Source of the DNA: Desulfobacteraceae bacterium
GTDB taxonomy: Bacteria; Desulfobacterota; Desulfobacteria; Desulfobacterales; Desulfobacteraceae
Assembly (NCBI GenBank): GCA_041685935.1
Contig: JAWLES010000001.1
Span: 1 to 62,291, forward strand
Direction: 5' to 3'
Length of the DNA stretch: 62,291 bases
The notes beneath the pieces were generated by a model. The model was not told where the DNA came from, searched no databases, and saw only the letters and a list, made by a program, of their open reading frames with translations. The position numbers and the translations under genes are program-made. Every line of letters starts with the position of its first letter. The stretch's first letter is position 1. Of the stretch, positions 20,921 through 62,291 are shown in pieces.

Positions 20921-21145
20921 ATTCCCACCTGATACAAAACTTTTCTTGTGAATTAAAGAGTTATTAATTTTTGTTTTTCATCGACTGATTCTAAAAAGGG
21001 TTTTGAAAAAGAACCTTAATGTTTTACACTATTTCAAATCAATTCAATGCTTTGTATTGAAAAGCCTCTGTTTTGGTATATAGTCTTTTAAAAAAACACC
21101 AATTACAACAGAGGGTGTTATTCAAAACCTGATTCCTTGACCATG

Positions 21146-22744
21146 TTAGGGACTAACATTTCTTTGATAAAGCACCACCTTATTTCTCCCGTCATGAATT
21201 GTTTTCATGACTTTGTATTTTTTTATTTGCGGTGATTGTAATGTTTTTTTTAATTTGAATATGAAGATATCCGGTTTTGTTTTGCGAAGGTTTTTTTGAA
21301 TGTTATTTTTTTTTGTGTTGTTTAGGTGAGAAATTTTTAAGTCTTTTTTGAAATTATCTTTACAATATAACTTATAGTAAAATACAGCGGTTTTGTCTGT
21401 AGTGAGTACTCTGTTTCCACGATCCGTTTTGTTTCGGGTCAGCCATTTTACGGCCTTTGGAACGGCGTCATCCCTTTCTATAACCGGCTCGAAGCTTTTT
21501 AATGCAGGTGCTGTAATCAAGGCGGCCATCAACAAAAGAATCATTTTTTTACGGCTGCCATGAAAGGCTTTGAACCACAATCTCTCTGCCCCGGCGCCAA
21601 TCCAGGGCAGCATAATAAAAGAGGGAATCAGCAGAAATCGTGTGGACAGAAAATCTTTTGCCAACAGAAAGTTATAGGCGAGTGCAATGAACAGCAGCCA
21701 CAGCCAGAGAAAAAATTTGCCGTGGGATACTGTTTTTGATTTGATTCCGAAATAAAGGGGGATACAGGATAAAACGAAAATGTTTTTGATCAGTATTTCA
21801 ACAATTCCGGCAGTGTATAGTAAAAATATGTAATGCCGGGACAGAGCTGCAAGGTTAAAGTGCAACCCTGAGAAAGGCGGATGGTTTTCCGCGGCTCTAA
21901 AGAAATGATAAATATCATGATATTGTTGAAGGAATTGGCCGGTGAAAATATTTGTCAGTTTGCCCCATATGGAGCTGAAACGATTAACCGAGAGGCTTTC
22001 CGGCCCGAAAAAATACAACAGAAAACCTGCGGCGGCAGCAGGTATGGCAGCCCATAGAAAAGCCCTCCAAAGATACAGCTTTTTTCCTTCTTTCCTGATA
22101 ATTCCAAGGCTTACCAGCACGGTGAAATAGAAAAAAAGAAGAATGCACCCTTCCACACGGAAGAGTATGGAGAGCCAAGCCAGGATGAAAGTGTATATAA
22201 ACAGCCTGTTGCAGGTCTGCCGGATTGACATCAGTGCAAAGCAGAGAAACCAGGCAGCGGTTAAAAGGAAAATAGGATCCCTGCTGACATAGAAGGACCA
22301 CTCATTTATTTGAGGCAGTGCGGCAAAAACAAGGCATGCCCAGAAAGCCGGACGTGTTCCTGCGGCAATCCTGGTGATATGGAACAGAGGAATCGTTGCA
22401 AGGACCATGCTGGTAATGGAAACAAAATAGCTCGCCATGATCCAGTCGGGAATGATTTTATGAACAGCCGTGAGAATAAGAGGATACAACGGCATGGGAT
22501 AAAGCTCTATGCCTTTTGCAAAGTTCCCTGCTGCATATTCCATTGCGGATCTGATGTAAAGGGTCCCGTCCATATTGATGGCTGCATCGTGCAGCATGAT
22601 CAAAAGAACTGTTTTGATAAAAAGGGAAACGGCCAGGGCAAAGGCAAGATAGATCCGGCTCTTTTTCTTTTCCGGGAGTCGGGAGAAAGACTCGCAGCCT
22701 CTTTTAAACAATGATTCAGCCGTGTTATTTGTCAAGGTCAGCAT
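21146..22744 (-). CDS. Polytopic GT-C glycosyltransferase (ArnT/PMT, GT39/GT83-like)
   Basis: 532 aa with more than 10 predicted TM segments, followed by a soluble Lys-rich C-terminal domain. The N-terminal loop and TM pattern are typical of ArnT-like undecaprenyl-phosphate-sugar transferases. Confidence 0.55.
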   Translation of the reverse strand: MLTLTNNTAESLFKRGCESFSRLPEKKKSRIYLAFALAVSLFIKTVLLIMLHDAAINMDGTLYIRSAMEYAAGNFAKGIELYPMPLYPLILTAVHKIIPDWIMASYFVSITSMVLATIPLFHITRIAAGTRPAFWACLVFAALPQINEWSFYVSRDPIFLLTAAWFLCFALMSIRQTCNRLFIYTFILAWLSILFRVEGCILLFFYFTVLVSLGIIRKEGKKLYLWRAFLWAAIPAAAAGFLLYFFGPESLSVNRFSSIWGKLTNIFTGQFLQQYHDIYHFFRAAENHPPFSGLHFNLAALSRHYIFLLYTAGIVEILIKNIFVLSCIPLYFGIKSKTVSHGKFFLWLWLLFIALAYNFLLAKDFLSTRFLLIPSFIMLPWIGAGAERLWFKAFHGSRKKMILLLMAALITAPALKSFEPVIERDDAVPKAVKWLTRNKTDRGNRVLTTDKTAVFYYKLYCKDNFKKDLKISHLNNTKKNNIQKNLRKTKPDIFIFKLKKTLQSPQIKKYKVMKTIHDGRNKVVLYQRNVSP

Positions 22745-47637: not shown

Positions 47638-48501
47638 TCAATCGAGATTGAACAGGATGTCGTTCTCCCTGTAGGCTTTTTCCAGCTTCTCCTGGTGTTC
47701 AGTGACGTCGTCTCCCTTTGTTTTGATCACTTCGTTTAAAAGATGGATGATCAGGCAGAGCATGGAAGAAGAGCTTTCATAAAACGGAATGGTTTTGGGC
47801 CGGGTGATAAGGTGGTGATGAGAGAACTGGATCAGCGGGCAGGCGATGCTGTCTGCAATCACAACGAGCTTCATTCCCAGCTGTTTGGCGTACTTTCCCA
47901 CCCGGATCAGCTCATTGGGATACCTTGAAATGGCCACAATCACAACCACGGAATCTTCACGCGCAACAGTCAGCCAGTCAAGTGAAGTCCTGTCACTTCC
48001 CTTAAGAATGTTTACATCCTTCCTGATTTTGGTCATGGCCCATCCCATGTAGTAGGCCGCATGATAGGAGAGTCTGGAGCCGACAATGTATACCGAGGAG
48101 CGGCTGCATAAAAGCGAAACGATTTTTTCTGCTTCGTCTCTGTCAATGGACTCGAGTAAAGCCTTCAGGTTGTCGATTTCCCTGGCAACCGTCAGTTCAA
48201 GCCCGTTTTCCCCGGTGTCGGCAATGCTCATCTCTTTTCGCTCAAGCAGGGTCAGTTCCGAGTCAATGAATTTTCTCAATTCGTTTTTAAACTCGGAGTA
48301 GGTGGAATAGCCGATTTGCCGGACGAACCTGACAACGGTGGCCTCACTTACACCTGCCTTGTCCGCAAGGTCTCTGGTGGCCAGAAAAACCGCCTTGGTG
48401 GGGTTCTCCAGAATAAACCGGGCCAGTTTTCTCCCTTTCGGGGTAAGCTCCTTCTCTTTTGCTTGTATGGCAAGGCTGAAAGATTTTTCTGAAAAGTTCA
48501 T
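47638..48501 (-). CDS. MurR/RpiR family transcriptional regulator (HTH + SIS)
   Basis: N-terminal HTH_6-type region (LATRDLADKAGVSEATVVRFVRQIGY). The C-terminal SIS domain has VYIVGSRLSY and VVVIVAISRYPNE. Confidence 0.85.
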   Translation of the reverse strand: MNFSEKSFSLAIQAKEKELTPKGRKLARFILENPTKAVFLATRDLADKAGVSEATVVRFVRQIGYSTYSEFKNELRKFIDSELTLLERKEMSIADTGENGLELTVAREIDNLKALLESIDRDEAEKIVSLLCSRSSVYIVGSRLSYHAAYYMGWAMTKIRKDVNILKGSDRTSLDWLTVAREDSVVVIVAISRYPNELIRVGKYAKQLGMKLVVIADSIACPLIQFSHHHLITRPKTIPFYESSSSMLCLIIHLLNEVIKTKGDDVTEHQEKLEKAYRENDILFNLD

Positions 48502-48531
48502 GGGATACCTGTGAAATTTTGGTACGATTTA

Positions 48532-48556
48532 TTTGTTGACAAGTTTTGTTACATAT
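48532..48556. promoter_or_regulatory. Shared 25-nt motif, copy 1 (rpiR / aor intergenic region)
   Basis: TTTGTTGACAAGTTTTGTTACATAT. It matches copy 2 at 51610-51634 at every position except one A/G. A degenerate third copy, AGTTTTGTTTTAACA, lies at 48575-48589. Confidence 0.6.
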
Positions 48557-48606
48557 GAAAGAAAAAAAGTCAATAGTTTTGTTTTAACAGCCCGAAAGGA
48601 GTTTTC

Positions 48607-50427
48607 ATGCAGTGTATTGATGTGGATCTTTCAGCAGGGACGGTGTCCCTGCATTCGCTGGATGACCGAATCCTGGAAAATTTTGTCGGAGGAAGCGGAA
48701 TCGGAGCCTGTATCGCCTGCCGGGAAAAACTCTGGAAGTATGACCCCTTATCAGCCGGAAACGTTCTTGTCTTTGCCGCAGGTCCGTTTACAGGTACGAA
48801 AATTCCATGTTCCGGAAGGCATTCTTTAACTGCCAGGTCTCCGCTCACCGGCCTTTTTGCCGAAAGCGACGTCGGCGGAAGATGGGGGACCGCGCTTGTG
48901 AAATGCGGATTTCATGTCATAACTGTAAGAGGTGCCTGTGACAGGCCTGTTTATCTGGAAGTTTCCCCTTCCGGGTGCAGGATACTCAATGCCGGTGAAA
49001 TATGGGGCATGGATACCTTTGATACCTCGGGCAGGCTTCAGGAAGTACACGGGGAAAAAACCGCTGTTTCGTGCATCGGACCTGCAGGGGAAAGGCTTGT
49101 GCGGTTAGCGTCAGTGATGCATGACGGCAGTGATGCCAGGGCTGCGGGAAGGTGCGGGCTCGGCGCTGTTATGGGGTCGAAAAAGCTGAAGGCGGTTGCA
49201 GTGGTTCGGGCAGGCAAAACAGTGGCAGGCAGGAACAGGGATCTGGAAAGAATGATACCGGCAATGCATCGGAAGGTTATGGACGCCGGAAAAGGATTGA
49301 GAAGCTGCGGGACCGCCGGAGGTTTTGTACAGCTTGAAAAAAGCGGGGATCTGCCGGTGAAAAACTTCACCGAAGGTGAATTCAGCTCGGCCGATCGCCT
49401 GGATGGTTCCGTGGTGTCTGAAAAGTACCTTAAAAAGAAGTACTCCTGCGGAGCCTGCCCTGTGGGATGCGGCCGTGTTGTTGAAATGAATGATGAACAA
49501 TTCGGAAGTGTGAAGGGAGCAGGGCCTGAATATGAAAGCACGGCATCACTTGGGAGTTACTGCATGGTGGATGACCTTGAGGCCGTGATAAAGGCGAATG
49601 ATCTTTGCAACCGGTACGGTATGGATACCATTTCCGCGGGTGCGGCGGTTTCCTTTGCCATGGAGGCGTTTGAAAAGGGATTGCTGACACCGGCTGATCT
49701 CGGAGGCGGGGACCTTCAATGGGGGGATGCCGGAAAAATGGTTCAGGTGGTTGAATCCATAGGCACGGCTGAAGGTATCGGCCGACTTCTCGGCATGGGG
49801 GTCAGGCATGCCGCGGAACGGCTTGGCAGCGGAGCGGACCGGTTCGCCATGCATGTCAAGGGACTTGAGCTTCCCGCCCATGACCCGAGGGCGTATTTCA
49901 GCACTGCGGTTTCCTATGCCACATCGAGCCGGGGGGCCTGCCACCTGGCCGGCATGACCCATGTCATTGAAGACGCAGTCACCGTGCCTGAAATCGGGAT
50001 CAGTGAGACCCTGCCACGCTTTTCCAACGAGGGGAAAGGGAGGGCCGCAGCCCGAATGCAGGACATGATGGGGATATACGATTCTCTGAAGATCTGCAAG
50101 TTCGTCACCGGTACCTTAACCTTATCAGAGCTTGCCGAATGCCATACCGCAGTGACCGGCATAAAATCAACTGCCGATTCCCTGATGAAAGCGGGCGAGC
50201 GGATATTCAACATCAAGCGGCTGTTTAATTTCAAGTGCGGCATGCCCGGGGCGCAGGACACACTCCCGGACCGGATTCTTTCCGAACCCAGGCCCGCCGG
50301 AAGCGCAGCCGGGAAATTGCCTGACCTTTCAAAGATGCTGAAAGAGTATTACAAGGCAAGGCAGTGGGATGAAAACGGCAATCCACTTGAATCCACGTTA
50401 AAAAGACTGGAGCTTGACAGGTTATGA
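48607..50427 (+). CDS. aor: Aldehyde:ferredoxin oxidoreductase family (tungstopterin enzyme)
   Basis: AOR N-terminal domain (VGGSGIGA, FAAGPFTG, GLGAVMGSKKLKAV), the [4Fe-4S] Cys motif CGACPVGCGR, and a family-typical length of 606 aa. Confidence 0.85.
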   Translation: MQCIDVDLSAGTVSLHSLDDRILENFVGGSGIGACIACREKLWKYDPLSAGNVLVFAAGPFTGTKIPCSGRHSLTARSPLTGLFAESDVGGRWGTALVKCGFHVITVRGACDRPVYLEVSPSGCRILNAGEIWGMDTFDTSGRLQEVHGEKTAVSCIGPAGERLVRLASVMHDGSDARAAGRCGLGAVMGSKKLKAVAVVRAGKTVAGRNRDLERMIPAMHRKVMDAGKGLRSCGTAGGFVQLEKSGDLPVKNFTEGEFSSADRLDGSVVSEKYLKKKYSCGACPVGCGRVVEMNDEQFGSVKGAGPEYESTASLGSYCMVDDLEAVIKANDLCNRYGMDTISAGAAVSFAMEAFEKGLLTPADLGGGDLQWGDAGKMVQVVESIGTAEGIGRLLGMGVRHAAERLGSGADRFAMHVKGLELPAHDPRAYFSTAVSYATSSRGACHLAGMTHVIEDAVTVPEIGISETLPRFSNEGKGRAAARMQDMMGIYDSLKICKFVTGTLTLSELAECHTAVTGIKSTADSLMKAGERIFNIKRLFNFKCGMPGAQDTLPDRILSEPRPAGSAAGKLPDLSKMLKEYYKARQWDENGNPLESTLKRLELDRL

Positions 50428-51608
50428 CACGATTCAGACCAAGAATTAAGCTTTCCGAAACAAGAGCGGACTGGCACCACCCTACATCCATCAGGTTCGG
50501 AGCAGGGCGTATAAAGGAAATTCCTCACGTATGCTGGAGTTCCGGAATTTCGTCACCGTTGATTATAACCGATCACGGGGTTGCAAAACTGCCCTTTGTT
50601 AAAAAAATCATTGAACTGAATCAAAAAGAGAGTATTTTTACATCAGTATTTTCCGAAATTTATTCAGAGCCGGATTTTGATACGGTGAAAGCCGGAGCGG
50701 AAAGACTCAGGACGGGAGGTCATGACGGCGTCATAGCCCTGGGGGGCGGAAGCGCCCTTGACGCGGCCAAGGCTGTTGTACTGGCTGCGTCAGCCGGTCC
50801 TTCCAGGATATGGGAGTTTTCAGCATGCATTTCCGGTACACCGCATGTAAAGAAGAACATCCTGCCGATCATAGCCGTTCCCACCACAGCCGGAACCGGT
50901 TCGGAGGTGGATGCCAACGCAGTGATCACCGACAACGTACAGGGAAGAAAAACCAGTATCGCCCATTCGGAACTTTTGCCGAAAATGGTCATCGCAGACC
51001 CGGAGCTTACCCGGGGGCTCATTCCGTATCTTACTGCAGCCACCGGCATGGACGCGCTTTCACACAATATCGAAGCATTGAGCTGTCCGGTTTTTCACCC
51101 GGTACTGGACGGGGTTTCCCTGCAGGGTATTCGGTACATCAAAGAGGGGCTTGTTCCAGCCTTTCACAGCGGTCGAAGCATCAAGGCGAGAACTTATACC
51201 ATGGCTGCTTCCATAATGGGAGCCATTGCATTTGAAAAGGGCCTTGGTGTGGGACATGCGGTTTCCCATGCCATTGGCGGCATGTTCAAGGTCCATCACG
51301 GAAGAGCTATTGGAACCCTGCTTCCCTTTGTTCTGATACTGAACCGGTCCAGGATAAAAGAGAAAATAGAGGATGCGGCACGATACCTTGATCTTCCGGG
51401 CCATGACTTTGATGCATTTGTGGATTGGGTGGCGGCGTTGAAGCTTGAATTCGGTATGCCGGCTAATCTCAGGGAGCTCGGTATCCGGGAGAGCCATATC
51501 CCGAAAATTGCCGAGAAGGCCCTTTCCGACGCCAATATTTTTACAAACCCGGTGTGCATGGATCAAAAGCGGCTTGAAGAATTTCTTTCGGGAGCGCTTA
51601 ACGGATAA
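50424..51608 (+). CDS. Iron-containing (type III) alcohol dehydrogenase
   Basis: GGGSALDAAKAV, PTTAGTGSEV and metal-binding His residues (ALSHNIEAL, HAVSHAIG). ATGA overlap with aor. Confidence 0.85.
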   Translation: MTRFRPRIKLSETRADWHHPTSIRFGAGRIKEIPHVCWSSGISSPLIITDHGVAKLPFVKKIIELNQKESIFTSVFSEIYSEPDFDTVKAGAERLRTGGHDGVIALGGGSALDAAKAVVLAASAGPSRIWEFSACISGTPHVKKNILPIIAVPTTAGTGSEVDANAVITDNVQGRKTSIAHSELLPKMVIADPELTRGLIPYLTAATGMDALSHNIEALSCPVFHPVLDGVSLQGIRYIKEGLVPAFHSGRSIKARTYTMAASIMGAIAFEKGLGVGHAVSHAIGGMFKVHHGRAIGTLLPFVLILNRSRIKEKIEDAARYLDLPGHDFDAFVDWVAALKLEFGMPANLRELGIRESHIPKIAEKALSDANIFTNPVCMDQKRLEEFLSGALNG

Positions 51609-51642
51609 AGTTGTTGACAGGTTTTGTTACATATTGTATTAA
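51609..51642 (+). promoter_or_regulatory. Shared motif copy 2, overlapping a candidate promoter for the mttB-like/opu unit
   Basis: AGTTGTTGACAGGTTTTGTTACATAT at 51609-51634, containing TTGACA (51614-51619), a 17-nt spacer and TATTAA (51637-51642). It begins 1 nt after the ADH stop. Confidence 0.5.
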
Positions 51643-51714
51643 AAACTGTCAGAGTCGAAAATCAAATTGTTTTCGGTGATCCGCCTTTTTTAATTTTCCA
51701 TACTGGAGGACGAT

Positions 51715-52929
51715 ATGGACAAAAAGCAGATTGAAACGTCAACATCACTTCTGGGGAAAAATACGGTAGAGATGCTGCTGCAGACCCACAAGGATTCCCT
51801 GTGGATGCTTGAAAATCTGGGCGTGGGGTGTGAACAGCCCGATATCATGGAAGCGTTCCGGGTGTATGAGGAAGACGGCAGGGCGATTGTATATGACGGC
51901 CGAGTATATATTACTGAAAGCCTTGTGTCTGAACTGATTGACAGAGCACCGGGCATAGATGAGTTTTTTGTTCCCAGAAACAGTTTTCTGATCGGCGGAA
52001 CAGCGCCGTACCTGTATGATGATGAAAAAAAGCAGGGCGGTAAAATGCCCACGGCAGAAGATGTTGCGACTATCGCGCGTATCGCGGAGAAAAGCGGTAT
52101 GGTCGCCGGAATGGGAAGAGGGGTAAAGCTCAAGGACGAGGTCGAGCAGATCAACCTGATGGCCGAGAACTGCACCAAGCCGCTGTATTTCGCTGCAACC
52201 AACGATAAGGCCATTGCCCGGGCCAAGGAACTGCATGCCGTCCGGAAAAACCTGATGGTGGTTTTCTGTCTGACCAGGCCGCCGCTCCAGGTGAACGAGA
52301 ATTTTTCCCAGGCGTTTGTGGACGTGGTGAAAAATGATCTGCCTGTGTTTATATCCGCCATGCCCCTTGCAGGCATCAGTGCGCCTTATTCCTACAACGG
52401 CGTGCTTTCCATGACCCATGCCGAAGTGCTGTTCGGTATATGCGCGGCCCAGCTCATCAACCCGGGATCCACGGTCATCCACGCGGGATTTCCCACGGTG
52501 GCCGACCCGAAGCATGAGTACAACCCGGATTACGGCTTGAAAAGTCATCAATTGTTGAATATACTGATGGCACACTTGAACATGATGCTTGATCTGCCCT
52601 CCATTCAGAGCGGGGGGACGACGAATGAAGAGCATCCCACGGAAAGGGCGTTTGAAGACGCCAGAAACGGGCAGGCACTTGCACTGAAATACGGGTTTCA
52701 TATGATTCGGCACCCGTTCGCTTTTCTCAAGCAGCTTGTGGATTTTTCCATTTACAAGCTTGAAAAGGCGATCGAAATCGCTGAAAACGTAAAACCGGAA
52801 GATGCTCCGGAGGTTGATATGCCCGAGTACGACGAGCGGGGGTTTCAATCCATACAGGAGCGACAGCTGCGGATGTACATGGATGATCCGCTGACCACTT
52901 CCAACATGAGCAAAATATTCATGTACTGA
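51715..52929 (+). CDS. MttB-superfamily methyltransferase, non-pyrrolysine type (possible quaternary-amine:corrinoid methyltransferase)
   Basis: By-eye alignment to M. barkeri MttB (recalled): PVFISAMPLAGISAPYSYNGVLSMTHAEVLFGICAAQLINPGSTV aligns with [45 protein letters not shown]. The Pyl position reads SGGTTNE with no in-frame TAG. At 404 aa it is shorter than typical MttB. Confidence 0.6.
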   Translation: MDKKQIETSTSLLGKNTVEMLLQTHKDSLWMLENLGVGCEQPDIMEAFRVYEEDGRAIVYDGRVYITESLVSELIDRAPGIDEFFVPRNSFLIGGTAPYLYDDEKKQGGKMPTAEDVATIARIAEKSGMVAGMGRGVKLKDEVEQINLMAENCTKPLYFAATNDKAIARAKELHAVRKNLMVVFCLTRPPLQVNENFSQAFVDVVKNDLPVFISAMPLAGISAPYSYNGVLSMTHAEVLFGICAAQLINPGSTVIHAGFPTVADPKHEYNPDYGLKSHQLLNILMAHLNMMLDLPSIQSGGTTNEEHPTERAFEDARNGQALALKYGFHMIRHPFAFLKQLVDFSIYKLEKAIEIAENVKPEDAPEVDMPEYDERGFQSIQERQLRMYMDDPLTTSNMSKIFMY

Positions 52930-53032
52930 TTTCTCCCGGATTTTTCAGGGGAAATCGGCCGGAAAAAATCTTTTCAGGAGAATCGCCACTGGTTTACTAA
53001 ATATACGGTAACTTTTTCAAAGGAGGTGGGAA

Positions 53033-54517
53033 ATGAAAACCAAGGTTCCGATTTGCCCTGCATGCAAAAAGGAATTACCTGAAGATGCAACCCAGTGTAC
53101 CTTTTGCTCGACAGAGGTGACAAAGCCGAAGTTCAGGGAGATTTTTTCCTGGAAGCTCTCTGACCGTTTTTTTCTGTTTTCCGTAATGCTGCTGTTTACG
53201 ACGTTTTTTCTTCCGTGGTTTCCCGGCCAGTTCCTTTACAGGGACGAACCCTTTTCCGCCTTTCAAATGCTTTTGAATCTATATGACCTGGAGGTGGGAT
53301 TTCTTGAATCTTTCAACATTCTCCGAATGTCCCAGATGGTTCCGCTTTTCGCCATCGTGGTCTTCTTTTTGATCTATATCGGGGATTATCTTAGAACCAC
53401 GCCGTATCCGGGCATTTTCATGTTTGTGATTATTCTGTACGGCGCAATCTCCTTCTTTTTTGACAATTTTTCAACGATAAATGCCTGGGTTGCCACGGCG
53501 GCATTGTTCGTGGTTGTTTTTTATTATTACAAATCCGGTATAAAAAAGGGAACAATCGGCAGGACATCGTATTACATGTTTTTTGTGCTGTTTCTGATAT
53601 CCTTGTTCCTGTATCTTTTCCATCTTTCCCAGACCTTTTATACAAGACTGGAAACCATTAATATAAACGAAACATACGGTTTTTTCAGTGCATGGATCAT
53701 TGTAAGCGCCATGATTGTTGTTGCCTTTTTCCGGTACATGGTGTCAACCGAGGATTTCTGGTGTCTTCTGGGAGTTTTCATATTTTCCCTGCTTGCATAT
53801 TCCAGTGTGGTCGAGCCCATTTTTGTGTCCGGTCCGTTACGGTTCTTTGCGGACAATTTCAGTAAAACCGGAATTCAGACGCTGGTGCACCTGAAAATCG
53901 TGGGAATTGCCCTTGCCATCGCCATTGTGGCCGGTGTCCCCCTAGGGGTTTACATTACCCGGCACCCTTTGGCCGCCAAAACCATTCTGTACATTTCAAG
54001 TGTCCTGATTACGATTCCCAGTATCGCCATGTTCGGTTTCATGATGCCTATCCTGTCGTCCATAGACAAGAACCTGGATATGGTCCAGGGGATCGGAATC
54101 GGTACGGTTCCGGCGGTGACGGCGCTGGCGCTGTATTCTCTTCTGCCGATTATACGGAACACGTACATTGCCCTGCAGAGTGTGGATACATCGATGATTG
54201 AAGCCGGAATCGGCATGGGGATGACCAGTTTCCAGCTTCTCGTCCGGGTGGAGCTGCCGCTGGCCGCTCCGATCATTATGGCCGGCGTACGGACATCTGT
54301 CGTCATGGGCGTTGCTATAGCGGCACTGGCGGCATATATCGGAGCCGGCGGCCTTGGCGACTTCGTTGTGCAGGGACTGCAGCGCTCAACCAATGCGTCG
54401 GTGCTGGCAGGCGCCATCAGCATGGGCCTTTTGGCCATCATCTGTGATATATTTCTGGAAAAGGCGGAGGACTGGGTAACCCCCACGGGATTAAAAGTGA
54501 AACAGGCAATGGAATAA
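53033..54517 (+). CDS. ABC permease (OpuCB/ProW-like BPD domain) fused to an N-terminal zinc-ribbon plus polytopic extension
   Basis: The C-terminal ~215 aa form a typical glycine betaine/choline permease domain (IPSIAMFGFMMPIL...EAGIGMGMTSFQLLVRVELPLA). The N-terminal ~270 aa contain CPAC...CTFC followed by about 7 hydrophobic segments. A strong RBS, AAAGGAGGTGGG, is present. Confidence 0.75.
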   Translation: MKTKVPICPACKKELPEDATQCTFCSTEVTKPKFREIFSWKLSDRFFLFSVMLLFTTFFLPWFPGQFLYRDEPFSAFQMLLNLYDLEVGFLESFNILRMSQMVPLFAIVVFFLIYIGDYLRTTPYPGIFMFVIILYGAISFFFDNFSTINAWVATAALFVVVFYYYKSGIKKGTIGRTSYYMFFVLFLISLFLYLFHLSQTFYTRLETININETYGFFSAWIIVSAMIVVAFFRYMVSTEDFWCLLGVFIFSLLAYSSVVEPIFVSGPLRFFADNFSKTGIQTLVHLKIVGIALAIAIVAGVPLGVYITRHPLAAKTILYISSVLITIPSIAMFGFMMPILSSIDKNLDMVQGIGIGTVPAVTALALYSLLPIIRNTYIALQSVDTSMIEAGIGMGMTSFQLLVRVELPLAAPIIMAGVRTSVVMGVAIAALAAYIGAGGLGDFVVQGLQRSTNASVLAGAISMGLLAIICDIFLEKAEDWVTPTGLKVKQAME

Positions 54518-54536
54518 ACCGGGGAGATAAAGAATT

Positions 54537-55643
54537 ATGGGTACGATGCTAAAACTGGACAAAGTGACAAAAATATATCCGGGAACGGATTTCCGGGCTG
54601 TTGATGAACTCTCGTTCGAGCTTGAAGAGGGAGAAATCTGTATTCTGGTAGGTCCTTCCGGATGCGGCAAAACCACAGCCATGAAGATGATCAACAGGCT
54701 GCATCCCGTTACAAGCGGGAAGATATATATAGACGGCCAGGATGTCTCGAGTATGGATACCATTCAGTTGAGAAGACGGATCGGATACGTGATTCAGAAC
54801 GTGGGGCTGTTTCCCAATATGACCATCGCGGAAAACATCAGTGTAATCCCGAACCTGCTCAAATGGGACAAAAAGAAAATCAACGAAAGGGTGCACAGTC
54901 TTCTGGAAATCGTGAATCTTTCCGCTGAAGAGTACAGGGACCGGTATCCAAGGGAGCTTTCAGGCGGGCAGCAGCAGAGGATAGGTGTTGCGCGCGGAAT
55001 GGCCGGAGATCCGCCCATCATGCTCATGGACGAGCCTTTCGGCGCCATTGATCCCATCAACCGGGAGCATCTGCAGAATGAATTTTTAAAAATTCAGGAA
55101 AAGGTGAAAAAGACCATCGTGTTTGTCACACACGATATCGACGAAGCTATTAAAATGGGTGACAAAATCTGCCTTCTGCAGGACGGAAAACTGGTTCAGT
55201 TCGCTTCCCCCGAGGAGATGCTCACCCACCCGAAAAATGATTTCGTCCGGGATTTTGTGGGCGGCGACCGGACCATAAAACGGCTGAACCTTTTCTCCAT
55301 CAGTAAGGTGATGAGGGATGACCCGCCTTTGGTTCAGGCTTCAGCCGGTCTTGAAGAGGCCAGAAGCAGGTTGTCCGAATACGGGACCGATTATCTCGTG
55401 GTCCTGGATGAGAACGGCAGGCTGGCCGGACTTGCGGCAGACGAAGATCTTCAAAAAAAGGGGGGTGCAGTGGCGGATGTGGTACAGAGCACCAGAGCTT
55501 ATCTTGACGGCACGGCAAGTCTGAAAGAGGCTCTTTCGGGACTTTTCACCCATGACACCGGATTTCTTATCGTGGTGGACGGCGACAAAAAGGTCACGGG
55601 CTGGCTTGATACCAATGATATCAAAAAGGCGCTCAAGGACTGA
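54537..55643 (+). CDS. Glycine betaine/carnitine/choline ABC transporter ATP-binding protein with tandem CBS domains
   Basis: Walker A GPSGCGKTT, LSGGQQQRIGVAR and LMDEPFGAID. The C-terminal ~120 aa are a CBS pair. OpuCA/OsmV-like. Confidence 0.9.
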   Translation: MGTMLKLDKVTKIYPGTDFRAVDELSFELEEGEICILVGPSGCGKTTAMKMINRLHPVTSGKIYIDGQDVSSMDTIQLRRRIGYVIQNVGLFPNMTIAENISVIPNLLKWDKKKINERVHSLLEIVNLSAEEYRDRYPRELSGGQQQRIGVARGMAGDPPIMLMDEPFGAIDPINREHLQNEFLKIQEKVKKTIVFVTHDIDEAIKMGDKICLLQDGKLVQFASPEEMLTHPKNDFVRDFVGGDRTIKRLNLFSISKVMRDDPPLVQASAGLEEARSRLSEYGTDYLVVLDENGRLAGLAADEDLQKKGGAVADVVQSTRAYLDGTASLKEALSGLFTHDTGFLIVVDGDKKVTGWLDTNDIKKALKD

Positions 55644-55699
55644 CGATCAAAGGTTGTTTGCCTTGAAAAAAACAATCAATCAGACAAGGGATTGTAAAA

Positions 55700-56470
55700 A
55701 TGAATTCAAAGGTTTTTTTTCAGATTGCAAGAAAAGGGCTGCCCGCCATTGTTACGGTGGCGGTCATTATCTTCCTTTATAAAACCTACGGGGCCTGGGA
55801 ATACACCGTGGAAAATCTGCCGGAATTTTTCAAGCTGACATACGAACACTTGGTGCTGGTGCTGATCACCATGTGTTTTTCCATAAGTATCGGTGTTACC
55901 CTGGGAACCCTTATGACAAGAGAAGGGTGGGAGAAAATTTCTCCCGTGATCATGGCGGTGGTCAATGTATGGCAGTCGATCCCGTCCCTGGGTGTAATCG
56001 CGCTTGCATACGGTATTCTTCCGATGATCGGTCTTTCGGGAATCGGTTTGATTCCGGCACTCATTGCTATTTTTACTTTTTCCGTGGCTCCGGTGGTGAG
56101 AAATACGTATGCCGGAATCGAGTCGGTGAGTTCGGATATAAAAGAGGCTGCAACAGGTATGGGCATGACCAAACAGCAGATCCTCTTCCGGATCGAGCTG
56201 CCGAACGCGCTTCCAATCATTATGGGCGGTGTCAGAACCTCCACGGCCCTTGTTGTGGGGACGGCCCCGCTGGCCTTCCTTATCGGCGGAGGAGGCCTGG
56301 GGTTCTGGATTTTCACGGGCATAGCCCTTGTGGACATGGGCATCATGACGGCCGGAGCCGTGCCTGTGGCCCTGATCGCCATGCTGTTCGATTTTATTTT
56401 GGAAATTGTGGAAAAAATTATTGTGAGCAGAGGAGTACAGGCGGACGAGGCCCAGCTGGCGGCATTGTAA
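55700..56470 (+). CDS. Glycine betaine/carnitine/choline ABC transporter permease
   Basis: BPD-type permease with EAATGMGMTKQQILFRIELPNALP (EAA loop). Confidence 0.85.
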   Translation: MNSKVFFQIARKGLPAIVTVAVIIFLYKTYGAWEYTVENLPEFFKLTYEHLVLVLITMCFSISIGVTLGTLMTREGWEKISPVIMAVVNVWQSIPSLGVIALAYGILPMIGLSGIGLIPALIAIFTFSVAPVVRNTYAGIESVSSDIKEAATGMGMTKQQILFRIELPNALPIIMGGVRTSTALVVGTAPLAFLIGGGGLGFWIFTGIALVDMGIMTAGAVPVALIAMLFDFILEIVEKIIVSRGVQADEAQLAAL

Positions 56471-56537
56471 GGTGCGCCGGGTTTTGCTGTCTGTTGTGTG
56501 TATATATAAATTTTAAAATTGTAAGGAGGTATGTCAA

Positions 56538-57461
56538 ATGAAAAGGTTGACCTTTATTTTTACCACACTGGCATTTTTGCTGGCATCCACGGTTTCTTTC
56601 GCAGGGCCGGGTGTGAAGGTGGCATCCAAAAATTTTACGGAACAGCTGGTCTTAGGTCAGATCATGGTGCAGCTGCTGAAAGACAGGGATATTCCGGTGG
56701 TGGACAAGACAAACCTGGGCGGCACCCAGGTGAACCGCAATGCCCTGAAAGAGGGACAGATCGATGTGTACATGGAATATACCGGAACCGCATGGATTAC
56801 CCATTTCGGCAAAGAGGAGGTTGTTCGTGATTCAAACGAGCTTTATGAAAAAGTCAAGACCCTTGACCGGGAAAAGAATAATTTGGTCTGGCTTGAACCC
56901 TGTAAGTTCAACAATACTTATGCCATTATCATGAAAGAGGAGACGGCTGCGGAACACAACATCTCCACGCTTTCCGAATGGGCTGAGTTCATCGAGGAAA
57001 ATCCGGGGAAAATGACCGTAGCCGTGGGCCCGGAGTTTTATTCCAGAGTGGATGGGTTTAAAGGTATGATGGGCCATTACAACCTTGAGTTCGGAGAGGA
57101 TATACCGGATTCGGATGTGAGCAAGATGGAAATCGCCCTGACCAAAAAATCTGTAAGGGACGGCAAGGCCATGTGCGGTATGGCGTTTGCCACTGACAGC
57201 GCCATCATCGACTATGGACTTCGGGTTCTCGAGGATGACAAGAATTATTTTCCCATTTACAATCCAGCCCCGGTTGTGCGCAAGGAGGTCCTGGACCAGT
57301 ATCCAAAGCTGGCGTATACCCTGAACCAGATCGGGACTTCCCTGGATACCGCCACCATGCAGCGGCTGAACTACCGGGTTAACGCAAACGGAGAAAAGCC
57401 TTCATCCGTTGCCCAAAGCTGGCTTGAAGGCGTGGGGCTGATAACTAAAAAACGGAAATAA
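56538..57461 (+). CDS. Quaternary-amine (glycine betaine/choline) substrate-binding protein, OpuAC-fold (OpuCC/OsmX-like)
   Basis: Signal peptide. VASKNFTEQLVLGQIM, DVYMEYTGTAW and YAIIM are typical of OpuCC-type binding proteins. Confidence 0.85.
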   Translation: MKRLTFIFTTLAFLLASTVSFAGPGVKVASKNFTEQLVLGQIMVQLLKDRDIPVVDKTNLGGTQVNRNALKEGQIDVYMEYTGTAWITHFGKEEVVRDSNELYEKVKTLDREKNNLVWLEPCKFNNTYAIIMKEETAAEHNISTLSEWAEFIEENPGKMTVAVGPEFYSRVDGFKGMMGHYNLEFGEDIPDSDVSKMEIALTKKSVRDGKAMCGMAFATDSAIIDYGLRVLEDDKNYFPIYNPAPVVRKEVLDQYPKLAYTLNQIGTSLDTATMQRLNYRVNANGEKPSSVAQSWLEGVGLITKKRK

Positions 57462-57498
57462 CAGCAATGCCCTTTTGGCTGAAGTAATTGTAAAAAAA

Positions 57499-57537
57499 AC
57501 AAACCCGGAGAAGTTACAGCCTCCGGGTTTGTTTTTT
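57499..57537. terminator. Bidirectional intrinsic terminator
   Basis: Perfect 10-bp stem AAACCCGGAG / CTCCGGGTTT with a 10-nt loop. An A-run lies 5' and a T-run 3'. It sits between the opu operon end and the convergent ParB-like gene. Confidence 0.8.
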
Positions 57538-58472
57538 CAGTATCTGACAAGTCCGAATAGCCGCCTGATCAATCCAAGGGTCCTTCGAGCCGGGCTTTTA
57601 AAAATCCTGGTGTACTCGGCCACGATACTTTCGGCTTCGTAGCTGTCGAACTGCTCCATGTCCTTTTCAGTGAGCTTTTCCCTGAACCGCATCACCCAGA
57701 TATAAAAGTCGGTGGCGGTCCTGTGTGGAAAGTATTCCATGATCCGGTATTTTTTAATGATTTCCACAAACGGCATGTAAACGGTATCATACCAGGAGAT
57801 TGCAGCCTCTTGGACGGAAACCTCCTTGCCGTCCCGATTCTCTAAATAATGCCGGTGAATCTGGATCTGTTTCATCAAAAAGGGGTATCCCCCGATCCGG
57901 GTCAATGTCAGATCCGGGTTCCGGGCGGTTTTCAGACCTGTTTCCTTTAAAAACTTGTGATATGTTTCCAGGATGGCAAGCTCCTCAATATCAGTATCCG
58001 TGTTTAAAGAGACGTCACAGTCGTATTCAAACACCCGCGCTTCAACTGATAGGATGTTCCGTGCTCTTGCCACTGAAATCCGGTGGTGGCCGTCTTTTAC
58101 AAAATACACATTGCAGACCTTGTACAGTTCAACCGGCGGCAGGTCCCGTTTTGCGTCAATAGCCCTTTCCACGTTTTTCCACCGTTCCCTGAGACTTTCA
58201 TCGAGCGGAAAAAAATGGCGGGTGAATCCCTTGTACCTGCCCTGGCTTCCGATAATCGAATCAAGGCGCACGGATTTAATTCCGATATCTTTAACCAGCA
58301 GAAGTTCCAGCCGTTCTTTGACATCGTCGAACGGCAGAAGCTGCTTGGTCTTCCGAAAGGGGAATCCCTTGATTTCTTCTATGAAGGCTTTGGTCATGGC
58401 GTTTGAAAAATTGGAATCAAGGCGCTCAGCCATGTTCGCCCGGCTTTCGGCTCTGCTTTTGAAAAGTGGCAT
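57537..58472 (-). CDS. ParB/Srx-fold domain protein (DGHHR motif), function unknown
   Basis: 311 aa. The central region VELYKVCNVYFVKDGHHRISVARA resembles the ParB N-terminal/sulfiredoxin-fold nucleotide-binding motif. The rest is unrecognised. Confidence 0.45.
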   Translation of the reverse strand: MPLFKSRAESRANMAERLDSNFSNAMTKAFIEEIKGFPFRKTKQLLPFDDVKERLELLLVKDIGIKSVRLDSIIGSQGRYKGFTRHFFPLDESLRERWKNVERAIDAKRDLPPVELYKVCNVYFVKDGHHRISVARARNILSVEARVFEYDCDVSLNTDTDIEELAILETYHKFLKETGLKTARNPDLTLTRIGGYPFLMKQIQIHRHYLENRDGKEVSVQEAAISWYDTVYMPFVEIIKKYRIMEYFPHRTATDFYIWVMRFREKLTEKDMEQFDSYEAESIVAEYTRIFKSPARRTLGLIRRLFGLVRY

Positions 58473-58671
58473 TGATTGATATTCTTGTATAGGGTTCGGT
58501 TACCTGATTTTCTATTGCAATTTGTTTTAAGATATAATAGTGAAACAGTTTATTGCAATATAAAAAACAGGTTCCGGGTGATTTTTTATAAATGACATGA
58601 TTTGTTTCATATGTAATCCGAAAACCTGAACCGGTGAAAATAATAGAAAAATAATACATGCGGGGTTACGG

Positions 58672-61600
58672 ATGTGTGGAATCGTGGCTTACTTCGGAAA
58701 TGCACCGAACAGCTTGAGCAGAGTTGTGACGGGGATGTCGGCGATTATATACCGGGCGCCGGACAGCACGGGAATTGCGAAATTCGGGGATATGGCCGAT
58801 CCGATCAGCCTGAGGAAAAATCTCGGCAGCGTGGCCGGGCTTTTTGAAGTTCTGGAAAACAATCCTATCAACAGACCTTGTGACCGGAATGTGTTGTCCA
58901 TATGGCAGTCAGGCGACATGGACCCCCCGAGGATGCAGAAACGCCTGATCGAATATGAAGGGCTTCCCCTGGAGATGTTCAACAATATTCAGTCCGGAAG
59001 GGCATCATGGCCGGTTTTTGAAGACCTTATCTCAAGATATTCAACCAACCAGATGTCGGTTTATCCCGGCTGCCCGGGAAATCCCTATTCTCTTCAAAGA
59101 TTCACGGTAAGGTCCAGAAATGATTTGCGAAGAGTCGTGGAAACCATGCTGAAAACCTACGACCTTTCCTTTGTGGCAATTAAATCCATTTTCCGGGCTC
59201 ATCTGGAAAAAGGGATCAACGCCCTTGGAAAAGCAAAGCCGGTCAAGGCGAGCGTGGCTGATATTTACAACGCTTTTGATCACCTGTTCCAGTTGATTTT
59301 TGAAGAGTACCGGCCTGTTGAGTTTACCCGGCAGAGTTATAAACGGGTGCATATGAACCCGTTTGCCAAAAAGTATATCTGGCAGCTGATATCCGGAATT
59401 CCTGTTAAAATCCCGGAAGATTTTGATAATGACGGAATCAAAAACCTTTTCCGCCTGCTGGATGAAGCGCTTCTGTCCAGAATCCATACCGATTCCGGAA
59501 TATCCGAAGAGATTCAGAAAAACCTGAACTATTCCCTGAAAGGGGATTATGAATCAGCCTCCATCGGGTGGTCCACGCTTTATCATGCGGAAAAAGGGGT
59601 GAATGTATACGGAAGAGCCTCAGCAGCCGTGCTGGAATGGATGCAGAAAAACGAAATATTGCAATCCATGTCCATGAGTATTTCTTCGGGAAGCAGCGCA
59701 GCTTTGTCAGCCCCCATGGGCGTTACCGGTCCAAAGTGCCTGAATTACCTGGTACAGCCGGTTCTCACACAGGGAAGATGGGCGCTTCAGTCTGAAGTGA
59801 CCTTGAAAAACGCTCATCCTTTTGTGGATGAAAACCGGAATCGGAGCATTGTATTGAACGGACAGTTTGCCGCTTCAGTGGAGGACGAGATGCGGGATTT
59901 TCTTTCCGGCGTGGTCAGGGTGCCGTTCAGGAGCGACAATTCGTCCGAATACTTCGCCCTTTTGTGGGGGTACTACTTTGATGTGCTTAAAAATGAAAAA
60001 CGGCAGTTTCAGCAGGTCAAGGACCAGGTTGAGAATGGACTTGAAGAGTATGCAGTCGGCAGCAACACCATAAACTACCAGATCTTCAAGCATATAAAAG
60101 ACAAGGAAGACACGGAACTTGATGAAGTTGCCTTTATAGAGGCTGCCAGGCGTTTTACAAAAAACGGGGGCCAGATTGCCGTGGCCGGAATCAGTGTGGA
60201 ATCCCCCCGCACCATTTATGCGGTATCCAACAACAGGCCCCTTTTCATCGTCAGGCGGAGAGAAACCCACGACTATATGGTGGTGTCGGATATAAACGCC
60301 TCTTTGGGACTGTTTTCCCAGCTGGAAATCATGGAGGTAACCAAGGCATACGAGAGTCTTTTAAAACAGAGGGACCTGGAAATAAAGCAGCTGAACCGGC
60401 AGCAGGCACCCAAGGAGGAAATAGAAAAGTGCAGGCAGGACCGGGATGCGGAAATCGACAGTGTGCTGACACGGTTTGCGGTGGATGTGTATGCCCTGGA
60501 AGGGGAAAACCTGTTTGCCAGGATCGCCACCGAATTCAAAAACAGCAGCGTGGAGCGTACAGTGGAGATTACCGATTTTGAGGGAAAGGTTCTTCATGAT
60601 ATCGAGCCCTACCGGATTAACCTGACTCCACCCCATGTGCACAAGGACCTGGACAAGTCGTTTTACAAGACCCATTTGGAGGAGGTTCCCGAACTCCTTG
60701 AAAATATGGTGGAAAATGTGCTCAACTCGGGTTCCAACATCAACGGTTTCAGCATCAATGAAAAATATCTCAAAAGACGGTTCGGCGAGAACCTGGGCGG
60801 AATCAAGAGGATTTTCATTGCAGGAATGGGCACTTCGTACCACGCCGCGCTCGGGGTTTCCGGTTTTTTCAGGAGCATGTTCCCTGATACAAGGGTGATT
60901 GTGCTTCAGCCGGTGGAAATCGATCTTATGAAAGGAATGTTTGTCCCGGAAGAGGATCTTGTACTTCTTTTAAGCTGGAGCTCCACCACCGCTGAAATGG
61001 TAAAGCTTTCCAAGGAGCTTTCCAAAACAAATGTACTGTTTATCGGGGTAACTGAAAAAATTTTCGGGGATATGGCGCTTGTGGCTCGGAAAAGCTGCGG
61101 CGTGGTATACGTTATGAGTGGCGAGGAAGTTACCGTTTCAGCTGTTAAAAGTACATTCTGCTGCATGATGAGTCTTGTCCTGTTCAGCCTTTATGTATGC
61201 AGGGACATGATACGTCAGCAGGTGGACTGGAGTGTCACCGGCGGGATCATGCAGGTTTCCCACTATCTGAAATCCATGGCTGATGACGGGGATCTTGAAG
61301 ACAGGGCGGCCAAGCTGGCCTCTCAGTATGCAGACTCGGACGGGTTTATCCTGATTGATGCGGTTCACTCCACCGGAGCGGCCCGCGAGGCGGTTTTGAA
61401 AATGGAGGAGATGACCTGGTCCCTGGTCGGCAGAGCAATTGATTACGATGATGTGAATCTCGGTCTTTTAAAAGATGCAGGCAGGCGGAGCTTTCTTGTG
61501 ATAAACGCAACCTGTTCCAAAAGGTTCTCCAGCGCACTGGAGCTGATGAAAACGCTGCACATGGAGGATATACCGTTTTGCGCAGTTGCCTTTGACGGAA

Positions 61601-62291
61601 CGGAAACCGACAGAATCAGAGAGTATTCAGCCGGAAACCTTGTTCTCCTGCCCAAGGTGGAGGACAATCTGCAGCCGTTTGTGGACCTTATGTTTTATTA
61701 CATCCTGGCATTCCATTTCGGCAGGGCTGCAGGCAGAAAAGCTGATGATTATCCGCGAAACCGGGCCAAATCCGTTACTACCTCCCGATCTGTCGGGTAT
61801 GAACAATCAAGCTCCCAGGGTGAGTTCTTTCTTCTGCGGCACAAGGAGCAGCTTTTCGGAGAGATCGGGCTGGATTCTCAGGATATGGCAATGACAACAC
61901 ACCTGGAGAAGGTGATTCGCAACGAGCCCTTTGCAGGCCGGATACAAGAGATTAAAAAGCTGGCATCCGTTATCAGGGAGGAGGATGCCTTTGAAAGGCT
62001 TGTGAGCTTTGACGGCAAATTCCATCAGGATTTTGCCCGAACCGTTTTTTCAGAAGGGCGGGAGACCAGGGTCAAGTTCGTACCGCTTGATGCAAAGGCG
62101 GAGGCTGCAGTCCGGAATGCAGCGGCAAGATTGAAAAGGTTCGTACCCTTTCAGGTCGGGATAGTTGACCGTTCCGAGACATTGCCCGTTTCAGACGGTG
62201 ATACCGTCAATATCGCAGTATCTTCATCCGGGTTTACCGGTAAACCGGAGCGGCTCCAAAGACTTGATGGTGACAGGACATTTTATTTCGG
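58672..62291 (+). CDS. Giant GlmS-like protein (class-II Ntn glutamine amidotransferase + two SIS domains, with large insertions and a C-terminal extension); 3' partial
   Basis: I checked the frame codon by codon from the ATG at 58672 to the window end and found no stop (1,206 codons plus 2 nt). It is absent from the ORF track. N-terminus MCGIVAYFG...YRAPDSTGIA. Then GRWAL...NAHPF...LNGQ...SDNSSEY; SIS1 IFIAGMGTSYH and LSWSSTT; SIS2 ILIDAVHSTGAAREAVLKMEE; GlmS-type tail PRNRAKSVTT at ~aa 1030-1036. At least 170 further residues follow. Confidence 0.75.
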   Translation, partial: MCGIVAYFGNAPNSLSRVVTGMSAIIYRAPDSTGIAKFGDMADPISLRKNLGSVAGLFEVLENNPINRPCDRNVLSIWQSGDMDPPRMQKRLIEYEGLPLEMFNNIQSGRASWPVFEDLISRYSTNQMSVYPGCPGNPYSLQRFTVRSRNDLRRVVETMLKTYDLSFVAIKSIFRAHLEKGINALGKAKPVKASVADIYNAFDHLFQLIFEEYRPVEFTRQSYKRVHMNPFAKKYIWQLISGIPVKIPEDFDNDGIKNLFRLLDEALLSRIHTDSGISEEIQKNLNYSLKGDYESASIGWSTLYHAEKGVNVYGRASAAVLEWMQKNEILQSMSMSISSGSSAALSAPMGVTGPKCLNYLVQPVLTQGRWALQSEVTLKNAHPFVDENRNRSIVLNGQFAASVEDEMRDFLSGVVRVPFRSDNSSEYFALLWGYYFDVLKNEKRQFQQVKDQVENGLEEYAVGSNTINYQIFKHIKDKEDTELDEVAFIEAARRFTKNGGQIAVAGISVESPRTIYAVSNNRPLFIVRRRETHDYMVVSDINASLGLFSQLEIMEVTKAYESLLKQRDLEIKQLNRQQAPKEEIEKCRQDRDAEIDSVLTRFAVDVYALEGENLFARIATEFKNSSVERTVEITDFEGKVLHDIEPYRINLTPPHVHKDLDKSFYKTHLEEVPELLENMVENVLNSGSNINGFSINEKYLKRRFGENLGGIKRIFIAGMGTSYHAALGVSGFFRSMFPDTRVIVLQPVEIDLMKGMFVPEEDLVLLLSWSSTTAEMVKLSKELSKTNVLFIGVTEKIFGDMALVARKSCGVVYVMSGEEVTVSAVKSTFCCMMSLVLFSLYVCRDMIRQQVDWSVTGGIMQVSHYLKSMADDGDLEDRAAKLASQYADSDGFILIDAVHSTGAAREAVLKMEEMTWSLVGRAIDYDDVNLGLLKDAGRRSFLVINATCSKRFSSALELMKTLHMEDIPFCAVAFDGTETDRIREYSAGNLVLLPKVEDNLQPFVDLMFYYILAFHFGRAAGRKADDYPRNRAKSVTTSRSVGYEQSSSQGEFFLLRHKEQLFGEIGLDSQDMAMTTHLEKVIRNEPFAGRIQEIKKLASVIREEDAFERLVSFDGKFHQDFARTVFSEGRETRVKFVPLDAKAEAAVRNAAARLKRFVPFQVGIVDRSETLPVSDGDTVNIAVSSSGFTGKPERLQRLDGDRTFYF

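Follow-up and report, generated by a model that had tools for sequence, protein, structure and literature searches.

A putative RpiR-controlled quaternary-amine regulon joining an aldehyde:ferredoxin oxidoreductase, a short MttB homolog and a GlmS-like amidotransferase in an uncultured Desulfobacterales-like bacterium

Introduction

Substrates are known for only a few enzymes of the MttB family, most of them from gut acetogens (PMC13080624). The described systems that come closest to the locus treated here are, on the side of demethylation, MtgB/MtgC/MtgA of Desulfitobacterium hafniense and MtpB, MtcB, MtyB and MthB of Eubacterium limosum, on the side of uptake and choline oxidation, GbsB/GbsA and OpuB/OpuC of Bacillus subtilis, and for two further enzymes the aldehyde:ferredoxin oxidoreductase (AOR) of Pyrococcus furiosus (entry 1AOR of the Protein Data Bank, PDB) and GlmS. 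Here we analyse a stretch of 62,291 nucleotides (contig JAWLES010000001.1, positions 1 to 62,291; hereafter the window) from an uncultured Thermodesulfobacteriota (Desulfobacterales-like) bacterium, in which a regulator gene of the RpiR type, an AOR gene (aor), an iron-type alcohol dehydrogenase gene (adh), a gene for a short member of the MttB superfamily (mttBs), a four-gene OpuC-type importer of the ATP-binding cassette (ABC) class and a gene for a large GlmS-like protein, here called Giant, lie next to each other.

The short MttB is, like MtgB and the E. limosum enzymes, a non-pyrrolysine TIM-barrel protein of the MttB superfamily, and in related loci its orthologs and neighbours adjoin a corrinoid protein with the motif DxHxxG...SxL...GG; it differs from them in its length (404 aa versus about 480 aa), in its identity of only about 24% to MtgB of D. 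hafniense, in lacking the residues Tyr97, Arg312 and Phe356, and in being partnered with Giant in a window that has no corrinoid protein, methyl-tetrahydrofolate (methyl-THF) methyltransferase or activase. As in B. subtilis, a type III iron-containing alcohol dehydrogenase (Fe-ADH) stands beside an importer of the OpuC type, made up of four genes that include those for a CBS-ATPase and an OpuAC binding protein, but this ADH fails the GbsB equivalog model, a ferredoxin-linked AOR appears in place of a dehydrogenase of the GbsA/BetB type, and the purpose here is likely to be catabolism in an anaerobe instead of osmoprotectant synthesis. The AOR has the two-domain architecture, the iron-sulfur cysteines and the catalytic Glu and His of the P. 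furiosus enzyme, from which it differs in being operon-coupled to a Fe-ADH within a putative amine-import and demethylation regulon. Giant shares with GlmS its N-terminal Cys1 amidotransferase start and its SIS isomerase modules, but is far larger, with an insert in the amidotransferase domain and a fused second isomerase module, lies far under the glmS cut-offs and is found in amine and MttB contexts.

Choline, glycine betaine and related osmolytes are major sources of carbon, nitrogen and methyl groups in saline sediments, and their fate, whether oxidation by sulfate reducers or use as methane precursors, affects methane emission. The locus appears as a defined regulon (three units, one operator, one regulator) in an abundant environmental group, it holds three uncharacterised families, namely the short MttB, Giant and a 311-aa protein, and it points to what may be a new physiological role of a tungsten AOR. 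We propose, with a probability of roughly one in three, that it is an RpiR-controlled regulon of three units (aor-adh; mttBs with the four importer genes; Giant) that serves the uptake and anaerobic breakdown of a quaternary-ammonium osmolyte, the alcohol or aldehyde of which would be oxidised by the ADH and AOR.

Results and discussion

Operator, regulator and transcription

A first-pass annotation of the window had described the gene order rpiR, aor, adh, MttB gene and four ABC genes, with the locus ending at 57461. This order was confirmed by a map of open reading frames (ORFs) together with Pfam and NCBIfam scans of the window proteins, and the reported ATGA coupling of aor and adh can be read directly in the sequence as a start/stop overlap at 50424-50427. 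The extent of the locus had to be revised, the genes reported being present and a third copy of an operator-like motif as well as the Giant gene reaching beyond the supposed end.

This 20-bp motif (TGACANGWTTTGTTWCATAT) has three matches in 62 kb against 0.00 expected (100 shuffles), with starts at 48537, 51615 and 58593. Copy 1 (TGACAAGTTTTGTTACATAT; 48537-48556, forward strand) lies in the rpiR-aor intergenic region, copy 2 (TGACAGGTTTTGTTACATAT; 51615-51634, forward strand) upstream of the MttB gene and copy 3 (TGACATGATTTGTTTCATAT; 58593-58612, forward strand) upstream of the Giant gene. Motif positions are conserved in orthologous loci, copy 1 being also present in loci L006, L007, L008 and L088 and equivalents of copy 3 in L007 and L088, while six distant RpiR-type loci (L016, L020, L042, L056, L091 and L092) carry the motif 5' of sox-like, mttB or rpiR genes. 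The proposal of a shared operator-like motif that links the units is therefore upheld, and because this operator is both shared and conserved, co-regulation of the three units is supported. The motif was also considered as a sigma-70 promoter, as it contains TTGACA, but none of its three sites was called as a promoter in a consensus scan, and this candidate was rejected.

The rpiR gene (47638-48501, reverse strand), divergent from aor, encodes a regulator with the RpiR/MurR architecture of an N-terminal HTH_6 domain (Pfam, 61 bits) followed by a SIS sensor domain (55 bits), and homologs with 44-54% identity occupy the equivalent position in related loci. Co-occurrence of regulator and motif suggests that RpiR may be the protein that binds the latter.

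The locus is transcribed in situ, as judged from salt-lake metatranscriptomes whose assembled contigs may include some DNA. These assemblies contain up to 54% of the sampled words of the locus, all of its genes are covered by RNA contigs, the aor/adh junction and the gap between mttBs and the first permease gene are both spanned, and contig depth is greatest over the binding-protein gene.

Comparative genomics

Related loci were collected in an MttB-centred set, for which a scan of species-representative genomes yielded 80 loci that were typed by tblastn, and in a Giant-centred set, for which a metagenome scan yielded 80 further loci; 86 loci were typed for the latter and about 170 related loci were compared overall. 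The short-MttB family is 65-70% identical across many Desulfobacterota and is found in three architectures. The first (about 50 loci) consists of MarR, the short MttB, one or two asparagine-synthetase-like genes, DAO, a gene of the metallo-beta-lactamase fold, a second MttB of 392 aa and a CN-hydrolase. The asparagine-synthetase cluster of these loci (e.g., L003:9024-18951, L018, L061, L070 and L093) is highly conserved, sometimes includes Giant, often lies near P-II, ammonium-transporter and GlnD genes, and looks like an uncharacterised amine or amide pathway. The second architecture (about 12 loci, including that of the cultured Desulfonema limicola) combines rpiR, SoxBDAG-like genes, the short MttB, sometimes a second MttB, the importer and Giant. 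The third is that of the window (rpiR, aor, adh, short MttB, importer, 311-aa gene, Giant), and a check of relatives for conservation of this order recovered it in L006, L007 and the metagenome contig L088.

The aor-adh pair extends well beyond this third group. AOR homologs are 77-80% identical in the clade of the window and then directly 55%, and those at 55% are again overlapped by a Fe-ADH and again located within the same system. Locus L089 carries MttB, a ferredoxin-like gene, subunits of a 2-oxoacid:ferredoxin oxidoreductase, the importer, AOR, ADH and Giant; L090 has two importers, AOR, ADH and Giant; L123 has MttB, a corrinoid protein, the importer, AOR, ADH and Giant; L118, on a contig that is cut, shows adh followed by Giant; and L174 consists of PrpD, AOR (52% identity), ADH, a 286-aa gene and Giant. 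Only 12 bases separate the end of adh from the start of Giant in L089 and L090. Since the pairs of the window and of L089 are similarly identical in both members (AOR 55%, ADH 57%), aor and adh have diverged as a unit. Linkage of such pairs to mttB or opu genes, on which the first-pass interpretation depended, recurs at 52-64% AOR identity in L089, L090 and L123.

An MttB-family gene is present in 55 of the 86 typed Giant loci, mostly immediately upstream of Giant, and about 22 loci combine MttB with a corrinoid protein that directly precedes Giant. MmgE/PrpD-family genes occur in 30 of these loci, the importer in about 25-33, rpiR in 15, the 311-aa gene in 10 and SoxBDAG-like genes in 6-9. 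The genes that most often accompany Giant are those of MttB, in many cases together with a corrinoid protein, and of OpuC-type importers; about 80 of the 86 loci are without aor-adh. The aor-adh pair is an accessory module that reappears beside Giant in no fewer than four lineages, with AOR identities as low as 52%; in further genomes the accessory position is occupied by sarcosine-oxidase-like genes or by the asparagine-synthetase cluster.

Glycerol-3-phosphate dehydrogenase-like genes adjoin the system in two lineages (L001:1-4521 and L089:15622-17827, both on the reverse strand). GlpA/B/C-like genes share one operon with rpiR in D. limicola (L001), and an FGGY kinase gene and a GlpD-like gene stand beside the system in L089, which hints at a glycerol-phosphate connection.

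The short MttB homolog and corrinoid proteins

The product of mttBs (51715-52929, forward strand) belongs to Pfam family MTTB (PF06253; 82.7 bits, cut-off 25), with an alignment limited to residues 177-353, and matches the MtgB structure with 67 bits over residues 19-356. Its ORF is uninterrupted and thus without in-frame UAG, which makes the protein non-pyrrolysine, and the model of the pyrrolysine enzyme, TIGR02369, is reached with only 73 bits against a cut-off of 525. The earlier assignment to the MttB superfamily as a methyltransferase without pyrrolysine therefore stands on both counts, qualified by the short length of the protein and its weak scores (83 bits with Pfam, 67 with the MtgB structure).

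Glycine betaine is bound in MtgB by Y97, R312, H348 and F356, of which R312 is reported to be conserved in all characterised members (PMC13080624). The short MttB retains one of these four residues, H348, according to HMMER and MAFFT alignments that concur; Y97 corresponds to a deleted loop, R312 to Ile or Phe and F356 to Leu. An invariant Arg adjoins the conserved His (R332-H333) and might stand in for the missing Arg312. The betaine demethylation that had been ascribed to this protein thus finds no residue-level support, although betaine is still a possible substrate.

No corrinoid protein and no pterin-binding (methyl-THF) methyltransferase were found in the window, which has one MttB, nor was a corrinoid-activating protein, so that the caution already voiced for the locus on the first two counts holds for the entire 62 kb. 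It is eased by those orthologs that adjoin a corrinoid protein: a scan for the DxHxxG...SxL...GG motif placed true corrinoid proteins beside the short or the 392-aa MttB in six ortholog loci. A short MttB that works without a corrinoid protein was considered, as the window, L003 and the locus of D. limicola all lack a linked one, and was abandoned when the motif scan showed true corrinoid proteins beside orthologs and beside Giant. In the split MtgBCD system of marine Ruegeria the corrinoid partner can also serve methionine synthesis. Genes for cobalt uptake, CbiM and CbiQ, are located directly downstream of an MttB-Giant-MttB-importer locus (L161:22102-23938), which fits a corrinoid dependence of these systems.

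The AOR and Fe-ADH

The aor gene (48607-50427, forward strand) encodes a protein of 606 aa with the domains AFOR_N (441 bits) and AFOR_C (224 bits), and among solved structures canonical AORs come closest (9g7j, 413 bits; 1aor, 386 bits). In the alignment with 1AOR the iron-sulfur cysteines (CxxCxxxC and a further C), the glutamate of GPEYES and the histidine of the C-H pair all match, and with two domains, four cysteines and catalytic Glu and His in place the protein can be assigned to the canonical broad-specificity clade, its cofactor and catalytic residues being intact. Family membership would also imply a tungsten (not molybdenum) cofactor and ferredoxin as partner. Canonical AORs are enzymes of broad specificity, and GAPOR is the member of the AOR family that acts on a phosphorylated aldehyde; the GAPOR model gives the AOR of the window 37 bits only.

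The adh product (50424-51608, forward strand; 394 aa; Pfam Fe-ADH and ADH_Fe_C) is indeed a type III enzyme, as first stated, but falls below every NCBIfam equivalog cut-off, with 306 bits for 4-hydroxybutyrate dehydrogenase, 244 for ErcA, 233 for lactaldehyde reductase and 229 for the choline dehydrogenase GbsB (NF053866, cut-off 550). As the GbsB model is thus ranked fourth, the suggestion of a GbsB-like choline oxidiser is not borne out, and among solved structures the protein is nearest to ethanol, methanol and propanediol enzymes.

Among the Pfam-annotated window genes none has an Aldedh domain, and a crude motif scan found no Glu/Cys active-site signature of aldehyde dehydrogenases in the window or in the approximately 170 related loci. 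This is in favour of the idea that the AOR replaces an NAD-dependent GbsA/BetB, an idea which otherwise shares the unproven status of the choline route to which it belongs.

The importer

Four separate genes on the forward strand encode permease 1 (53033-54517; 494 aa; BPD_transp_1 at residues 301-476), a CBS-domain ATPase of the ProV/OpuCA type (54537-55643; TIGR01186, 352 bits, cut-off 327), permease 2 (55700-56470; 256 aa; BPD_transp_1) and a substrate-binding protein of the OpuAC family (56538-57461; 307 aa; 218 bits). This is the architecture of the OpuC/OpuB type, in agreement with the four-gene quaternary-amine importer originally annotated. The binding protein has as its closest solved structures the binding proteins of acetylcholine/nicotine sensors, OsmF and OpuCC/OpuBC, and by sequence resembles binders of choline, acetylcholine and betaine; reading its substrate specificity from similarity alone was considered and found not to be possible. 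Permease 1 has an N-terminal extension of about 290 aa (53033-53930), which starts with a zinc-ribbon-like CPAC...CTFC followed by hydrophobic segments, and the same extended form is found in the distant loci L091, L107, L124 and L167.

Giant, a GlmS-like amidotransferase

The Giant gene (58672-62291, forward strand), interrupted by the end of the window, forms the third unit marked by the operator. It accompanies aor-adh more constantly than any other partner and was absent from the earlier interpretation. Its product starts with MCGIVAYFG, typical of class-II (N-terminal cysteine) glutamine amidotransferases, and reaches 123-155 bits with NCBIfam glmS models that have cut-offs of 381-418 and 63 bits with human GFAT1 from the PDB. 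It is not a GlmS by TIGR01135 (123-140 bits, cut-off 418), and full-length homologs measure about 1500 aa (e.g., L090:11027-15598) in contrast with the roughly 600 aa of the two-domain form.

For the 470-aa C-terminal extension of a homolog, the predicted fold (predicted local distance difference test, pLDDT, 84.6) has its best Foldseek matches among GlmS/GFAT isomerase domains (E 1e-8). Because this extension folds as a second GlmS isomerase domain, Giant is predicted to be composed of an amidotransferase domain, which has a large insert, and two tandem isomerase modules of the GlmS type. The SIS modules contain a Ser/Thr-rich loop and a PRNRAKSVT motif, in which we see a likeness to the phosphate loop and to the C-terminal motif with the catalytic lysine in E. 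coli GlmS. An action on an acyclic ketose phosphate had at first been deduced from a first isomerase module without the histidine of 'KHGP', and was withdrawn once the C-terminal extension was recognised as a second module with an 'AHGP' motif. The conserved Cys1 and the GlmS-like motifs suggest a glutamine-dependent amination of a ketose phosphate, and this would fit a phosphosugar-sensing regulator of the RpiR type.

Interpretation and alternative explanations

A co-regulated system for a substrate of the quaternary-amine type is firmly supported, with aor-adh integrated into it as an accessory module. In the regulon that we propose, the OpuC-type importer would take up a choline- or betaine-type compound, with choline as the simplest candidate, and the Fe-ADH and AOR would convert its alcohol function to the aldehyde and on to the carboxylate, ferredoxin presumably being the acceptor instead of an NAD-dependent betaine aldehyde dehydrogenase being used. 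The short MttB would then pass a methyl group to a corrinoid protein encoded elsewhere and so to the methyl branch of C1 metabolism, and RpiR may act on the 20-bp operator in answer to a phosphorylated effector, possibly the product of Giant.

Several observations weigh against this proposal. RpiR effectors are normally phosphosugars and not amines, the RNA evidence consists of assembled contigs with possible DNA carry-over, neither a full set of MtgB-like betaine residues nor a linked corrinoid partner is present in the window, and the ADH scores poorly as a choline dehydrogenase. Moreover, L008 (81% MttB identity) has rpiR-adh-mttB without aor, and, most importantly, Giant is a steadier neighbour of aor-adh than the importer or MttB, neither of which lies within the 15 kb in view in L174.

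A related but narrower explanation is the route of the first-pass annotation, in which the Fe-ADH oxidises choline to betaine aldehyde, the AOR oxidises this to glycine betaine and the MttB homolog demethylates the latter to dimethylglycine. Co-regulation, linkage, the missing aldehyde dehydrogenase signature and an importer of the choline/betaine type all agree with it, and so do short-MttB orthologs (65-70% identity) without adh/aor, which lie beside a second MttB and sarcosine-oxidase-like (SoxBDAG-like) or DAO genes, a neighbourhood that fits the series from betaine through dimethylglycine and sarcosine to glycine and suggests an acidic series of N-methyl amino acids that begins with glycine betaine. 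It is weakened by the loss of three of four betaine-binding residues, Arg312 included, by an ADH that is not GbsB-like, and by Giant, which has no place in this route and is left unexplained by it despite its constancy beside aor-adh. We consider this choline-to-betaine route plausible but unproven and, taken in full, doubtful.

It is also conceivable, if rather unlikely, that the ADH and AOR are partners of Giant and have nothing to do with choline: Giant would use glutamine to aminate a ketose phosphate, the AOR would oxidise or the ADH reduce the 2-amino-aldose phosphate so formed (or some related aldehyde), and the importer and MttB would supply nitrogen or methyl groups within this regulon. 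The order AOR-ADH-Giant in L089, L090, L123 and L174, the narrow adh-Giant gap in two of these, the structure of L174 with no importer or MttB in view, a regulator of the phosphosugar-sensing type and the position of several related loci beside P-II, ammonium-transporter and GlnD genes are in keeping with such a scheme. Set against them are an AOR that falls in the canonical clade and hardly matches the GAPOR model, the large majority of Giant loci that do without aor-adh, and the lack of any described pathway with such a step.

A reversed order of reactions, with the short MttB acting first on a non-acidic donor such as choline and the ADH and AOR then oxidising dimethylaminoethanol to dimethylglycine, appears improbable. 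It would explain why the carboxylate-binding Arg312 is absent, and E. limosum is known to demethylate the choline skeleton directly under anaerobic conditions (PMC12155760), but its enzyme uses phosphocholine and needs a LicA-like kinase, a domain that was not found among the scanned locus proteins. The occurrence of short-MttB orthologs in loci that have no ADH speaks for a substrate on which no oxidation is required, and R332 beside H333 could replace the missing arginine.

That aor-adh is a general detoxification or redox-balancing pair for aldehydes and alcohols which merely adjoins amine genes, as the broad specificity of canonical AORs, an ADH without specific family assignment and the aor-less L008 might suggest, is very improbable given that the pair carries the operator common to the other two units and is linked to Giant, the importer or MttB in four or more lineages, with AOR identity as low as 52%.

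A wider possibility, which we put forward tentatively and with considerable doubt, is that Giant may belong, so far unrecognised, to the core of corrinoid-dependent quaternary-amine catabolism in Desulfobacterota, tying demethylation to a sugar-phosphate amination that may be the source of the RpiR effector, with a ferredoxin-linked AOR and Fe-ADH module that would replace NAD-dependent aldehyde dehydrogenases in anaerobic oxidation of choline-type compounds. In the literature searched, no description was found of Giant, of an MttB coupled with RpiR or a GlmS-like enzyme, or of a role of an AOR in choline or betaine-aldehyde catabolism, and a search for D. limicola and betaine likewise did not return this system. 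The original statement that no described AOR with this role is known accordingly holds for that literature, except that a review mentions betaine aldehyde in its account of WOR5/ASOR. As the cultured D. limicola carries the sarcosine-oxidase-like version of the system, experiments are feasible.

Other features of the window

The gene between the importer and Giant, h311 (57537-58472, reverse strand), encodes a conserved 311-aa protein in which LPPV.LYKV...YFVKDGHHR, including the KDGHHR motif, is invariant, and homologs at 50-58% identity adjoin the importer in about 10 distant loci. No Pfam or NCBIfam match above threshold was obtained for it, the only hits being weak ones to DUF4032 and ParB_N, and a single-sequence structure model reached a pLDDT of 44. 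Homology to MthK, the choline kinase of E. limosum, was considered and rejected, MthK being LicA-like and h311 showing only these weak hits and no PDB sequence match.

A perfect inverted repeat of 17 bp (57494-57537; AAAAAACAAACCCGGAG / CTCCGGGTTTGTTTTTT; 100% complementary) is located between the convergent genes for the binding protein and the 311-aa protein and is probably a bidirectional terminator. Two of the RNA contigs stop at 57455, just short of this repeat.

The other genes of the window are lipopolysaccharide (LPS), ATP-synthase and housekeeping genes, and proteins identical to those encoded here are found in a metagenome-assembled genome of the Thermodesulfobacteriota. The GC content of the window drops to 0.35 at 20001-22000, compared with about 0.48 elsewhere, where a PMT_2-like glycosyltransferase gene lies inside an LPS/glycosyltransferase region, which is typical of a variable surface-polysaccharide island.

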